Below are positions 13,616 to 64,000 of a stretch of 64,000 bases of DNA, in pieces. Within the stretch, counting starts at the first letter, position 1. Every line of letters begins with the position of its first letter. The translations under genes were made by a program, and so were the position numbers. Origin of the DNA: a virus (taxonomy: Duplodnaviria > Caudoviricetes); the IMG/VR virus record IMGVR_UViG_3300040811_001959, one strand, 5' to 3'. The notes under the pieces are model-generated. The model was not told the origin of the DNA. It worked only from the letters and a program-made list of their open reading frames with translations, and made no database searches.

Positions 13616-15120
13616 TAGATAAAATCTGTATAGTAGGTGGCGGAACAAGTGGATACATTGCAGCGTTAATGCTTAGATCTGCATATCCTAATTTAGATAT
13701 ACAATTAATTGAAAGTTCTAAAATTGGAATTGTAGGAGTGGGCGAAGGAACTACAGAACATTTCCGTAAGTTCATTATACATTCGAACATCAATATCTTT
13801 GATTTATTTAGAGAAACAGATGCAACTTTTAAAATTGGAATCAAATTTCAAAATTGGTTAGGAAATAATAAACATTATTGGCATAATCTTACTGAATTTT
13901 TTGTTACACAATCTGATACTAATGGTCTTTTTACATCATGGTTACAATTAGTGATGGATAATGTAGAGCCAGATAAAACTGTTTGGGATTTAGCTATTAA
14001 TGGTAAACATATTGCTCCTTTAGATAAAATTATATCACAATTCCATTTTAACACTTTTAAATTGAATTCTTTTTTTAGGAATCTTTCAATAACAAGGAAT
14101 ATCCATATTGTTGACACTGAAATAGTTGATACTATACTAGATGAAAATAATAATATTAACCATATTATCGACAAAGATAACAAAATTTATGCTGCAGATT
14201 TTTTTATTGATTGTACAGGTTTTGCAAGGATACTGGCTAGAAAATTAGAAGTTAAATGGCATACTATATTTGATAAACTTCCAATGAATAGTGCCTTGGC
14301 ATTTTCAACCGATATTACCGAAGTAATACCAAATTATACATTATCGACAGCAATGTCTAGTGGATGGGCATGGAGGATTCCTACACAGGAAAGGTATGGC
14401 AATGGATACGTTTTTTGTAACAATTTTATAAATCCTGATAGGGCGTTAGATGAAATAGAAAATTATTATGTAACCAACAATATTACAAAAAAAATTACAG
14501 ATGCAAGATATTTTAACTTTACAAGTGGGTTTTCTGATAAATTTTGGTATAAAAATTGTGCATTTGTTGGGCTAAGTGGATTGTTTGTAGAACCACTAGA
14601 AGCAACTTCTATAGGAGCCGTAATACAACAATGTTTTTTATTAACTAATTCTTTGTATTTTTTCCACAAAAATGATACCAAAGTAAGTAAAATACACAAT
14701 GACAGGATGAATAAGATTGTTAGTAACATAATTGACTTTATTCAACTTCATTACCTTACAAGTAGAAAAGATTCAAATTTTTGGAAATTTTGCAAAAATG
14801 ATTTAAAATTAACTGATTTTAATGCAGAGTATCTTGATTATATGTCTTATAATTTTCCTGATAGTCAACTTTTTCAAGATACTATGTTAATGTTTAATTG
14901 TTTAAATTTTGGCCAAGTTATGTTAGGTTTGAATTTAATATCAAAAAAAGGACAGGAAAATATTAAACAGCAATTTCAAAAACATTTATATATCAATTCT
15001 TTAAAATTAGAAGATATATATAATGACATGTCAAATCCAGATTTGCAAACCTATTCACACAATGAAGCTATTGAATTATTAAAAGAATTAGATAAACATG
15101 AATACAAATACAAGTTATGA
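13612..15120 (+). CDS. Flavin-dependent halogenase, tryptophan-halogenase family (copy 2)
   Basis: 502 aa; GGGTSG, 'VGEGT', 'ATFKIGIKFQNW', 'GWAWRIP..ERYGNGYVF', 'FVEPLEATS'. Confidence 0.9.
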   Translation: MIDKICIVGGGTSGYIAALMLRSAYPNLDIQLIESSKIGIVGVGEGTTEHFRKFIIHSNINIFDLFRETDATFKIGIKFQNWLGNNKHYWHNLTEFFVTQSDTNGLFTSWLQLVMDNVEPDKTVWDLAINGKHIAPLDKIISQFHFNTFKLNSFFRNLSITRNIHIVDTEIVDTILDENNNINHIIDKDNKIYAADFFIDCTGFARILARKLEVKWHTIFDKLPMNSALAFSTDITEVIPNYTLSTAMSSGWAWRIPTQERYGNGYVFCNNFINPDRALDEIENYYVTNNITKKITDARYFNFTSGFSDKFWYKNCAFVGLSGLFVEPLEATSIGAVIQQCFLLTNSLYFFHKNDTKVSKIHNDRMNKIVSNIIDFIQLHYLTSRKDSNFWKFCKNDLKLTDFNAEYLDYMSYNFPDSQLFQDTMLMFNCLNFGQVMLGLNLISKKGQENIKQQFQKHLYINSLKLEDIYNDMSNPDLQTYSHNEAIELLKELDKHEYKYKL

Positions 15121-60928: not shown

Positions 60929-61975
60929 TTAAAAGATCAAACTATAAACTATTGATCTGTTCCTACTTATAAATTCGTCTTGTATTTCATTATCGTTTAT
61001 AAAATACAAACCAGTTCCACCATTATTACTGGATTTACTGTAAATTCTTATGCCATCTGACGGAGCTTCAGGATCAATCTTTGGATCATCTGCATGCGGA
61101 GTGGTTGTAAGTTCTAATACATCGTCAATCTGAACTTGGGATTGTCCTGGAGCTCTTAAAGTTAAATTATTACCATTCGTTTTTGGCCTAATAGAAGGTC
61201 CATCTAATGTCAAACCTTGAGTATCAATTGTTGAACTGTATACTGTAAAAACAATATTTCCGTCTATAAAATGATCAACTCTACTAGGAGTGCTATCAAT
61301 GTCAAAATCATGAGCTTGTACTTTTGTATCATATGCTTCTATTACTGCACCAGTTCCTATGTTTGTAAAGGCGTATTCAACATAATCTGCTACAGCCTCC
61401 ATATTTGGAATATGGAGATAATCTTTTATAACATTATTGTTTATCTCTACTAGATTATTTCCACTATAATTTAATACTTTCTTTTTATAATCCGGGATTA
61501 ATTCTGTTGTTATAGCATCACTTGCATCTATAAAAAATTTACCAGGTGTTTTAACTCCGCCGATATATATAGGTATAGGACCAATAAAATCGTCATCTTC
61601 AAATGTAAATGTTCCTCGTGTGCTAGTGCCTTCGCCATTGGTCCAAGCAATTGATTCGTCGAACACCATCCTAACCCTAGACCAATCACCTCTATCTATT
61701 TCAATACCGGCTCTATTTGAATTATCTATTATACCGTCAATACCAGAAGGGTTTTCATATTTGTTAATAACAACTATATTATCATAGACATTTAGATTTT
61801 GTGAATTTACGGTTGTAGTTGTTCCTTTGACCAATAAACCACCGTTGACGATTACTTCACCAACTAAATCGCCATTTGAATCAATTTCTCCTCGACTTGT
61901 ATCAAGGATGATATTTTTACCAGATTCAACTTTAACAATATAATTTCCGTTTTCTACACTTAAAACTTTTGACAT
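60929..61975 (-). CDS. Virion structural protein
   Basis: 348 aa; 'V.G.L.VKGTTTTVNSQNL.V.DNI..IN', 'AGIEIDRG', 'FDES..W'. Confidence 0.6.
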   Translation of the reverse strand: MSKVLSVENGNYIVKVESGKNIILDTSRGEIDSNGDLVGEVIVNGGLLVKGTTTTVNSQNLNVYDNIVVINKYENPSGIDGIIDNSNRAGIEIDRGDWSRVRMVFDESIAWTNGEGTSTRGTFTFEDDDFIGPIPIYIGGVKTPGKFFIDASDAITTELIPDYKKKVLNYSGNNLVEINNNVIKDYLHIPNMEAVADYVEYAFTNIGTGAVIEAYDTKVQAHDFDIDSTPSRVDHFIDGNIVFTVYSSTIDTQGLTLDGPSIRPKTNGNNLTLRAPGQSQVQIDDVLELTTTPHADDPKIDPEAPSDGIRIYSKSSNNGGTGLYFINDNEIQDEFISRNRSIVYSLIF

Positions 61976-61985
61976 ATTTTATTCC

Positions 61986-62016
61986 AAAATATGTAGGCAC
62001 AAGGTGCCTACATTTT
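61986..62016 (-). terminator. Probable intrinsic terminator after the 149-aa gene
   Basis: 10-bp perfect stem ATGTAGGCAC/GTGCCTACAT (61991-62000/62004-62013), 3-nt loop, short A/T tails on both sides. Confidence 0.65.
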
Positions 62017-62021
62017 ACCTA

Positions 62022-62471
62022 TTATACATCTTCAACGAAATCAGTAGCATTTGTTCCAGCATCATCATCGCCTGCTTCTTCTACTTCTACAGCACCATCA
62101 TCTAGAGCTGTTGAGAAGTTCCATGGAATTGATTTTCCGTCATAAGCATTTGCCCCTGTAGCTGTTGGAGCAACTACTGTCATTTTACGTCCAGCAATTT
62201 TTTTACAATTATATGTTTCGCCGTCGTCTGCTTTTACTGATATTGACATTTCAGTACCAGTTAGAGCTGCAGGTAATTTACCCCAAGTAAGAAATCTATC
62301 GTAAGTTGGTGTTCCACCTGTTCCAAGAGCTGCTACTCTAAATTTTTTGCTGCCTAATTGCTTTACAATGTATCCTTGTACAACACTTGCTGTTCCCCAG
62401 AAATCAACTTTGATTTCTTTACCTGCTGCAGTAGGTGTTCCAAAATACTTTTTGTTTACTGGTCTTCCCAT
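62022..62471 (-). CDS. Conserved-looking hypothetical protein near capsid gene (basic N-terminus MGRPVNKKYFG)
   Basis: 149 aa; strong SD AAGGAG; own promoter, leader and terminator; 'GYIVKQLGSKKFRV'. Confidence 0.7.
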   Translation of the reverse strand: MGRPVNKKYFGTPTAAGKEIKVDFWGTASVVQGYIVKQLGSKKFRVAALGTGGTPTYDRFLTWGKLPAALTGTEMSISVKADDGETYNCKKIAGRKMTVVAPTATGANAYDGKSIPWNFSTALDDGAVEVEEAGDDDAGTNATDFVEDV

Positions 62472-62479
62472 TTTTTTCT

Positions 62480-62562
62480 CCTTATTAGAAGTCCGATCCG
62501 GGTTCTATCCGGTACGCTGTGGGTCAGCATAAGTCCACCATTGTGGCACACTATCGCACAAA
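62480..62562 (-). ncRNA. Candidate structured 5' leader RNA of the 149-aa gene
   Basis: 39/70 G+C (56%) over 62491-62560 in an AT-rich genome; hairpins UAUGCUG/CAGCGUA and CCGG/CCGG flanked by direct repeat GGACUU; lies between promoter motif and SD. Confidence 0.45.
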
Positions 62563-62570
62563 GTATTTAT
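62563..62570 (-). promoter_or_regulatory. Late promoter-like motif ATAAATAC
   Basis: Overlaps the TGA of the 42-aa ORF; starts the structured leader. Confidence 0.6.
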
Positions 62571-62698
62571 CAAGTTTTATGCTTGTTTTGTTTTTGTTCT
62601 AACCATGCTTTCTTAGCCCAATTTGGGAGATCTTTAAAGCGATAGCTAGTTAAACCTATTTGTTCATTTTCGTCTTGGGTTTCTAATTTTTTGTGCAT
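62570..62698 (-). CDS. Unannotated 42-aa ORF overlapping the iscU 3' end
   Basis: MHKKLETQDENEQIGLTSYRFKDLPNWAKKAWLEQKQNKHKT; SD AGGAG 6 nt before the ATG; fills the gap exactly up to the next promoter. Confidence 0.55.
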   Translation of the reverse strand: MHKKLETQDENEQIGLTSYRFKDLPNWAKKAWLEQKQNKHKT

Positions 62699-63069
62699 TG
62701 TTTACTCCTGTAATCTTTTATTGCTGCTTTAATTGCATCTTCTGCTAAAACTGAACAATGGATTTTTACTGGAGGAAGTGCTAGTTCTTCTACTATTTCT
62801 GTATTTTTTATTTCAAAAGCTTCGTTTATTGTCTTGCCCTTTACCCATTCTGTTGCTAAACTACTGCTTGCAATAGCTGATCCACAACCAAATGTCTTAA
62901 ATTTTGCATCAACAATACGTTCATCTTCTACACGAATTTGTAATTTCATAACGTCACCGCATTCCGGTGCACCAACTAACCCTGTACCAACATCTGCTGC
63001 TGATTTGTCTAAACTGCCTACGTTTTTAGGATTGTTGTAATGTTCTAATACTGCATCATTATATGCCAT
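62683..63069 (-). CDS. iscU: Fe-S cluster assembly scaffold IscU/NifU-N
   Basis: 128 aa; 'HYNNPKNVG', 'GAPECGDVMKLQI', 'FKTFGCGSAIASSS', 'LPPVKIHCSVLAEDAI': all three Cys, Asp, His and the LPPVK chaperone motif are intact. Confidence 0.97.
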   Translation of the reverse strand: MAYNDAVLEHYNNPKNVGSLDKSAADVGTGLVGAPECGDVMKLQIRVEDERIVDAKFKTFGCGSAIASSSLATEWVKGKTINEAFEIKNTEIVEELALPPVKIHCSVLAEDAIKAAIKDYRSKQCTKN

Positions 63070-63081
63070 GGTTTTTTCTCC

Positions 63082-63119
63082 AAAAAAAAAGCTCTATAAA
63101 AATATTTATAGAGCTTTTT
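63082..63119. terminator. Bidirectional intrinsic terminator after the major capsid gene, containing a TATAAATA late promoter
   Basis: 15-bp inverted repeat AAAAAGCTCTATAAA-aata-TTTATAGAGCTTTTT; T9 tail on the minus strand; minus-strand TATAAATA at 63103-63110. Confidence 0.8.
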
Positions 63120-63148
63120 AGTTTTAGTATCTGAGTTAGATAATAATC

Positions 63149-64000
63149 TTAGCTAAAGAATACCTTGGTTGAATCCATTGCTACTTTATTCAAGTAATCA
63201 GCAGCATTACCAAGAGATGAAGCTGTATTTGTTAATTCTACATATCCATATCTTGTCATAAAGCTAACTACTGGCTCGAATGTAGCCGGATCAAGTACTG
63301 TTCCGCTGCTCATCAATGGAATGTATGGGCAGTAGAATGCAGCAGCATCGCTCTCGCTTGAACCTTTGTATCCAATAAGAACGTCTGTTGAATCTCCAGC
63401 ATATGTGTCTACATATACTTTCATAGCATTATTTAATGTACCAACAAATTTTGTATTTGTTGGAGCTTCAAATGTGCCTTCTGTTGTTCTAGCAAATGCG
63501 CTTGTTGTAGCACTTTGTAGTACAGTCAAAGCAAAAGGAGAAACAACTGCCCAGTTAGCAGCGCCTCTTCTTGTTCTTTGAGCAATAATATTTGCTGCTC
63601 TGTTAATCAATACTGCCAATGCAGCATGCTCATCGCCTACAAAAGTTGCAGTACCTGAAATGTTTGTTTGATCATATGATAAACCTGATGTACCGGCTAA
63701 AGTTCTTAAACTAGCTAATACTTCTTGATCAATTTCAGCAGTAATTTCTTGAGCTAATGCAGCCATAATTTCAGCTTCTACATCAATTCCGTGCATAGCT
63801 TGAGCATCTTGTGCAGCTTCAAAAGTCCAGCGAGCGCTGAGCTTTCGTGTTTTAGCTTCAACAGTTTGCTTCAAGATTTGAATTGACATTTTTCTGCCAG
63901 CTTGACCTTCTAGGTTAGCTGTTGCATCTGGCTTTCCAGGATTGCTACCGTTACCTGAATAAGCTTCAGCAATCTTAAATGGTGACAATGCTTCTTCTCC
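63149..64000 (-). CDS. gp23: Major capsid protein (T4 gp23-like), C-terminal 284 aa; runs off the right edge
   Basis: 'KTRKLSARWTFEAAQDAQAMHGIDVEAEIMAALAQEITAEIDQE', 'TRRGAANW', 'YCPYIPL', 'FMTRYG'; the frame stays open to base 64000. Confidence 0.97.
   Translation of the reverse strand, partial: GEEALSPFKIAEAYSGNGSNPGKPDATANLEGQAGRKMSIQILKQTVEAKTRKLSARWTFEAAQDAQAMHGIDVEAEIMAALAQEITAEIDQEVLASLRTLAGTSGLSYDQTNISGTATFVGDEHAALAVLINRAANIIAQRTRRGAANWAVVSPFALTVLQSATTSAFARTTEGTFEAPTNTKFVGTLNNAMKVYVDTYAGDSTDVLIGYKGSSESDAAAFYCPYIPLMSSGTVLDPATFEPVVSFMTRYGYVELTNTASSLGNAADYLNKVAMDSTKVFFS

Follow-up and report, generated by a model that had tools for sequence, protein, structure and literature searches.

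What is the long GC-rich leader that separates a late promoter-like motif from the Shine-Dalgarno (SD) sequence of a 149-codon gene in this virus, and does it control the gene behind it? The window, i.e., the whole stretch of 64,000 nucleotides that was analyzed, belongs to a 144-kb IMG/VR virus record with an estimated completeness of 39%. The leader occupies about 86 nt of the minus strand (62472-62557), with a T4-type late-promoter motif on one side and a strong SD and AUG on the other. The promoter-like motif, GATAAATA, lies at 62564-62571 (-) and was assigned from the sequence only. T4-type late promoters consist of a TATAAATA-like -10 element, read by a gp55-type sigma factor, at a fixed short distance before the transcript start; here the transcript is predicted to start about 6-8 nt downstream of GATAAATA, near 62557. 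An ATAAATA motif was found upstream of 100 of 130 distinct related leaders, while GATAAATA itself shows no enrichment in the window. In the window, six further starts on this strand have NATAAATA 16-32 nt ahead of them, across gaps with 22-35% G+C, whereas the promoter-to-start gap of the 149-codon gene is 91 nt long and has 47% G+C. The G+C content over 62491-62560 rises to 55.7%, against 33.5% for the whole window, and 0.3% of all 70-nt windows are equally GC-rich. The SD, AGGAG, is located at 62478-62482 (-) outside all hairpins, and the start codon with the first two bases of codon 2, AUGGG, at 62467-62471 (-). The gene itself (62022-62471, minus strand) is followed at 61984-62013 (-) by an intrinsic terminator-like element, a perfect 10-bp hairpin (62013-61991) and a UUUU tract (z -3.8), which behind the stop codon makes the gene a one-gene unit. 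The preliminary description of this DNA had pointed out the GC-rich leader before the SD, the short and AT-rich gaps before other starts and the stand-alone gene with its own terminator, and all of these were borne out. The fold predicted for the single leader sequence is not significant (z -1.78), so support for its structure rests on the comparison with relatives.

Rfam covariance-model searches were performed on 61800-63300, on the whole 64-kb window at gathering thresholds and on the whole 144-kb record. The leader matches RF02980, freshwater-2 RNA (type Cis-reg), at 62469-62550 (-) with 68.5 bits and an E value of 5.8e-10; the gathering cut-off is 49.9 bits, and the match spans positions 1-84 of the 84 positions of the model. 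It is the sole Rfam match in the window and is present as a single copy in the record. The model ends at the AUG (62471-62469), so that SD and AUG are inside it, and an AUG at the model end was likewise present in all 87 loci retrieved through the protein and in the 79 model hits checked. The leader shares with RF02980 the three hairpins, the ACUUAUG...CGUA and UAGAAC elements and the SD and AUG at the 3' end, and differs from it in nothing of kind, although a pairing between a hairpin loop and the start codon, described below, is absent from the Rfam structure line. With its full-length score, three covarying hairpins and a position 5' of a coding gene, the leader is a full-length member of an already catalogued family, and the element itself is not new. 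A match to a known family had been missed by eye before; the Rfam/Infernal scan proposed at that time gave one above the gathering score. Its classification as a cis-regulatory RNA is supported by the curated family, the covariation and the constant place of the motif in the 5' UTR before one gene family.

The preliminary description had also considered a stand-alone small RNA or a self-cleaving ribozyme, for which the GC-rich fold is the single argument. We regard this as barely credible: SD and AUG are inside the conserved model, the spacing to the start codon is conserved (25-44 nt), no terminator is found between the hairpins and the gene, and no ribozyme or sRNA family reaches its threshold in the Rfam scans.

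The name and the family description presumably refer to occurrence in aquatic, mainly freshwater, metagenomes. The motif was reportedly first described in the survey of 224 motifs by Weinberg et al. in 2017. The relatives collected here come from JGI, ENA, Logan and Tara assemblies and from IMG/VR contigs. Our literature search found no text that describes freshwater-2, and the main text of the 224-motif survey (PMC5737381) does not name it.

Three hairpins were identified, all on the minus strand. P1 (62534-62550) has a core CCAC/GUGG at 62546-62543 and 62538-62535; it was absent from the preliminary description. P2, UAUGCUG-ACCCA-CAGCGUA (62513-62531), has 7 bp, and P3, CCGG-AUAGAAC-CCGG (62498-62512), directly abuts it. 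Both had been picked out by eye before, and all three hairpins are backed by the Rfam alignment and by covariation. The sequence and length of P1 differ among relatives, and some of them, L207 among them, have no P1. In P2, the four outer pairs UAUG/CGUA, one of which is U.G, never change, and covariation is seen in the inner pairs; in P3, all four stem pairs covary and the loop (A/C)UAGAAC is conserved. No consistent complement of UAGAAC was found anywhere from the leader to +90.

Covariation was analyzed in two sets. The first contains the 40 distinct leaders of 87 loci in a plain MAFFT alignment that was not fitted to a model: 98.9% of the cells pair, compared with 32-42% when the partners are slid, and double changes are found at 8 of 15 pairs. 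The second contains 76 further sequences from the first batch of the scan described below, in an alignment fitted to the model: 97.5% of the cells pair, with double changes at 10 of 15 pairs. The covariation that had been proposed as a check on the leader was therefore found, and strongly, in the three hairpins. Because the pairs include G.U pairs, one of them the invariant U.G, the structure belongs to the RNA of the minus strand.

Several other features of the leader were set aside. The alternative pairing of a P3 strand with AUCGG, suggested previously, was not kept, as most relatives read AUAGGAC and the pairing is specific to the lineage of the window. The two GGACUU repeats reported together with it do exist, at 62536-62531 and 62494-62489, and are not conserved: of 130 distinct leaders, 54 have the second GGAC and 61 have GGACU before P2, so the repeat was rejected both as a core feature and as a CsrA-like double site. 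A closing helix between the GUC/CGAU segment 5' of P1 and a segment 3' of P3 is predicted in the single-sequence fold only; the alignment, inspected by eye, gives it no covarying partner, and short-form leaders do not have the 3' segment. The 5' strand of P2 carries an invariant AUG (ACUUAUG; 62528-62530, minus strand), present in all relatives, with no SD and no conserved frame. An upstream ORF starting at this AUG was rejected, since frame and stop shift with the loop length among relatives.

For the 149-aa protein, metagenomes yielded more than 1,200 relatives with 60-100% identity, some of them on contigs of up to 330 kb, and at least 481 viral contigs encode a relative. All 87 fetched loci that encode relatives have the leader, in the same layout behind the ATAAATA motif. 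In the other direction, viral contigs were searched gene-blind for the P2-P3 core, and the hits that passed a covariance model (R1) built from the 40 leaders amounted to 79 copies and then 15 more. ORFs that start with MG(R/N) or MAR were found downstream of all 79 hits of the first batch; they encode 116-512 aa, and about a quarter show no detectable similarity to the profile of the 149-aa family. Only some of the divergent copies found with our own model reach the RF02980 cut-off. The reverse association fails, as three of four distant family members checked (L206, L208, and L209) have short unrelated leaders, and the fourth (L207) has P2-P3 and lacks P1; the leader is thus not obligatory for the MGRP gene family. 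The IMG/VR record contains one MGRP-start gene and one copy of the motif. Two contigs contain two copies of the leader, at 1422-1515 and 3147-3232 in L105 and at 449-537 and 1641-1721 in L200, and on each contig they precede different MG(R/N)-start genes (297 and 460 aa in L105). The unit of leader and N-terminus is therefore duplicated within phage genomes. Among isolate phages (50,697 records), tblastn gave no match for the 149-aa protein or for two distant N-terminal modules.

The 130 distinct leaders were also used in the pairing tests of the P2 loop. Its last four bases are CCCA in 59 leaders, CCAA in 24, CCCG in 21, and CCAU in six. In the window, CCCA forms the 3' end of the loop (62520-62523, minus strand), and 62523-62520 are complementary to the UGGG of the AUGGG start (62470-62467); these are the two proposed strands of a pseudoknot. 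The UGGG is the sole consistent downstream partner (81 of 130 leaders; 8 for the next best offset), and no upstream partner was found in the 130 leaders. On its 5' side the loop has a stretch of variable length, 1 to 5 nt, while CC(C)R abuts the 3' strand of P2; an H-type pseudoknot that stacks on P2 has this geometry. In the alignment from the loop end to +6, 86% of the cells pair in register, compared with 55, 43, and at most 25% when slid.

Since AUGGG is fixed by the coding of Met-Gly, most of the apparent conservation of this pseudoknot is one-sided, and natural variants of the start were therefore sought. The Ala2 start (AUGGC) alone turned up, in 18 distinct leaders; a base other than G at +3 was not seen in any leader that carries the motif. 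Opposite +4, the loop has C in 49 of the 76 leaders with AUGGG, G in one and another base in 26; in the 18 leaders with AUGGC, it has C in none, G in six and another base in 12. Fisher tests that take the sequences as unrelated gave p values of 1.9e-7 for C and 1.4e-4 for G. The six AUGGC leaders with G carry GCCA, in some cases extended to UGCCA:UGGCA or UUGCCA:UGGCAA; one AUGGC leader shows GUCAU:AUGGC, and none has CCCR. The G cases are spread over five N-terminal sequence types. These comparisons give moderate support to a compensatory change, from C-G to G-C, at one pair, the fourth, of a loop/start-codon pseudoknot. In about 10% of the leaders (loops ACAAAA and ACAGAA) and in nine of the 18 with AUGGC, only two or three pairs are possible. 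For ACCCA, the calculated duplex energy is about -5.5 kcal/mol, and CCAA or CCAU loops reach about -3 kcal/mol; a 4-bp helix alone probably does not pay the pseudoknot penalty.

Two further observations concern the bases around the start. Codon 2 (62466-62468), where it encodes Gly2, is GGA in 118 of 131 leaders, whereas Gly11 is encoded by GGA in 46, GGT in 36, and GGC in 10; A at +6 is thus preferred at the level of the bases, beyond what the protein sequence demands. Where relatives have a GGG/CCC stem, the AUG of P2 copies the context of the real start (UAUGGGG and AAUGGGA, respectively), which would allow the real start to pair with the 3' strand of P2 as well.

The reading that we prefer, and to which we give an even chance, is that the leader is the freshwater-2 5' UTR of a late, one-gene mRNA for a virion protein and exerts translational control through a start-codon pseudoknot. 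The H-type pseudoknot stacked on P2 would occlude the start codon in competition with the 30S subunit, and this occlusion would set or switch translation initiation. As the 4-bp helix is marginal unaided, a factor is probably involved; this putative factor may stabilize or release the pseudoknot by reading the invariant base of P2 (UAUG/CGUA with its U.G) and the P3 loop AUAGAAC. Start-codon pseudoknots are used by a protein to control its own translation in the rpsO (S15) and alpha-operon (S4) mRNAs of Escherichia coli. The likeness to these is that the pseudoknot takes in the initiation codon, and the comparison is functional only: the helix of the leader has 4 bp, the gene is a phage virion gene, and there is no relationship of sequence or family.

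The hairpins might instead guard the 5' end of an abundant late mRNA from nucleases and keep the SD free, with no switching. The position of P1 near the predicted 5' end would suit such a role, as would its free sequence and variable length; P1 starts about 6 nt after the promoter motif in the TATAAATA-type relatives L044, L061, and L066. The SD is predicted to be mostly unpaired (mean probability 0.67 over 116 leaders), and the gene is probably highly expressed, given its predicted late promoter, strong SD and own terminator. However, P1, the most stabilizer-like of the hairpins, is dispensable, as L207 shows, and a mere stabilizer needs neither the invariant UAUG/CGUA with its U.G nor AUAGAAC nor CC(C)R. 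Moreover, no copy of the motif precedes the capsid gene or another abundant late gene, and the compensatory changes between loop and start would be left unexplained. A constitutive leader of this kind is unlikely in our judgment.

A small ligand pocket formed by P2, P3 and the pseudoknot, in which the ligand closes or opens the start codon, is very improbable. In its favor, the leader has a compact fold with a pseudoknot, unpaired bases that do not vary and a start site that takes part in the fold, and the related contigs L044 and L063 even have a glutamine riboswitch between the capsid gene and the MGRP gene; yet most of the conserved bases of the leader belong to hairpin loops and not to a junction of several helices, there is no obvious reason why a metabolite should control a late virion protein, and the gene family offers no hint of a ligand. 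The Rfam type of the family is just Cis-reg, and the leader matches no riboswitch family in the Rfam scans. The preQ1-I/II and SAM-II riboswitches are similar-sized H-type pseudoknots that hide the ribosome-binding region; the leader differs from them in having neither an Rfam match to these families nor a ligand logic, and in an extra invariant hairpin, P3, inside its long connecting loop.

The start-codon pseudoknot that we favor probably needs a factor, and the gene product is itself a candidate. The N-terminus of the 149-aa protein, MGRPVNKKYFG, is basic, as had been noticed before, and residues 1-125 have a pI of 9.6, while the last 24 residues have a pI of 4.05. Its AlphaFold model (pLDDT 87) shows an all-beta fold with a disordered acidic tail. 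No family for this protein was found in Pfam or PHROGs, no match in the PDB at an E value of 0.001 or better with Foldseek, and no usable match in the Atlas feature search. VIA-align against solved structures gave generic small-barrel matches only (Tudor/chromo/KOW/SH3-like), with Z scores of 4.9 or less. Matches among the predicted viral structures of BFVD reach an E value of 1.5e-7 and are all uncharacterized; two are from the Agrobacterium giant phage Atu_ph07.

In profile searches, the domain is always N-terminal, in proteins of up to 1,022 aa, and some of the ten longer relatives scanned have C-terminal fn3, PA14/GLEYA, Laminin_G_3, Big_2 or tail-protein domains. A gp23-type capsid gene is located upstream, on the same strand, in all 82 loci analyzed (82/82). 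Because the N-terminal module carries swappable domains and the gene always follows the capsid gene, the MGRP-family protein is probably a capsid-associated virion anchor module with exchangeable outward parts, of which the 149-aa form would be the stand-alone version with an acidic tail. One MGRPLKIAKAQ-type paralogue (L098:1692-3095; 468 aa) shows GYIVRQKGKTKYLV at residues 308-325, the counterpart of GYIVKQLGSKKFRV (residues 31-48) in the 149-aa protein, with an hhalign probability of only 21%; in this paralogue, a large insertion may separate the N-terminal arm from the barrel.

These properties bear on an autogenous operator, already suggested in the preliminary description, in which free MGRP-family protein, before its assembly on capsids, would attach to P2/P3 of its own mRNA and stop further translation, in the manner of ribosomal proteins S15 and S4 or of T4 gp32. 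Such an operator is compatible with the pseudoknot, and the protein would then be the factor that the pseudoknot lacks. All copies of the motif precede genes of this family, among them paralogues with little in common except the N-terminal MG(R/N)P or MAR; the folded core is basic in contrast to the acidic, disordered tail; and the SH3/Tudor/KOW-like barrel class includes RNA binders, although the matches obtained are generic. The exclusive association can, however, also arise by duplication of the leader together with the 5' end of the gene, and family members without the leader exist. The fn3, PA14/GLEYA, Laminin_G_3, Big_2 and tail-protein domains on the same module and its constant place behind the capsid gene suggest a virion anchor rather than an RNA-binding regulator, and we consider the operator unlikely. 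The operator of gene 32 in T4 and RB69, where a pseudoknot at the 5' end nucleates cooperative binding on an AU-rich stretch, resembles the present case in being a phage leader pseudoknot before a gene whose product has a basic core of the nucleic acid-binding type and an acidic tail; it differs in that the pseudoknot here takes in the start codon of a late structural gene.

A more specific version, assembly-coupled feedback, would have the capsid-free MGRP-family protein bind the invariant base of P2 and the P3 loop and so lock the loop/start-codon pseudoknot. We hold this to be doubtful; if true, it would match the synthesis of a decoration or adhesin protein to the capsid supply in giant phages, and would constitute an autogenous circuit in the style of ribosomal proteins within a virion assembly pathway. 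More generally, if the preferred start-codon pseudoknot has a protein partner, it would be a rare case of translational control of phage late structural genes.

The capsid gene of the window has its closest DNA-level matches, at 65-71% identity, in giant phages with sizes of 285-470 kb, such as PA5oct and the Rak2-like group, and an uncultured aquatic giant phage with a gp23-type capsid is the best explanation for the source of this DNA. To our knowledge, freshwater-2 is one of many orphan RNA motifs known from metagenomes only, with no assigned organism, gene function or mechanism. The context added here is that of a probable late leader in giant phages, exclusively linked to probable virion genes that start with MG(R/N) or MAR, with a pairing between loop and start codon. 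The motif can thereby be assigned to giant T4-like aquatic phages, where it comes directly behind the capsid gene and follows a predicted late promoter. It also gains a target, probable virion proteins with a common MG(R/N)/MAR N-terminal module and swappable adhesin-like ends, and a candidate mechanism, the start-codon pseudoknot, for which compensatory mutants are already present in nature.

In the window, the gp23-type major capsid gene extends from 63149 to beyond 64000 (Pfam Gp23, E 7e-81), and a NifU/IscU-like iron-sulfur scaffold gene (62683-63069; Pfam NifU_N, E 1.7e-53) and a 42-codon ORF taken from the ORF list (62570-62698) follow it, all on the minus strand. Genes of 348, 147, and 650 codons come after the 149-codon gene, the last of them with FG-GAP repeats, and a relative of the 348-aa protein is located downstream in 65 of 73 loci. 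Of about 200 related loci checked, only 3 have the NifU-like gene, which sits inside the head-gene module and looks like a lineage-specific auxiliary gene. In the marine relatives L044 (2631-2683) and L063 (2308-2357), the glutamine riboswitch (RF01739; 54.6 and 59.5 bits, respectively, with a cut-off of 35) sits between the capsid gene and the freshwater-2 leader, in L044 before a 63-codon ORF. The slot behind the capsid gene, filled by the NifU-like gene and the 42-codon ORF here and by the riboswitch in L044 and L063, is thus a variable insertion site.

Another contig with a divergent freshwater-2-like leader, L163, also bears Polynucleobacter-1 RNA (RF01718) at 13720-13854, with 85.2 bits and a cut-off of 37. 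Finally, the gap between the capsid gene and the NifU-like gene of the window (63069-63125, minus strand) contains an 11-bp hairpin followed by eight U, which is terminator-like. The 5' arm of this hairpin includes a TATAAATA motif, which places a late-promoter motif within the stem of a terminator-like element, and directly after this element comes the SD of the NifU-like gene.
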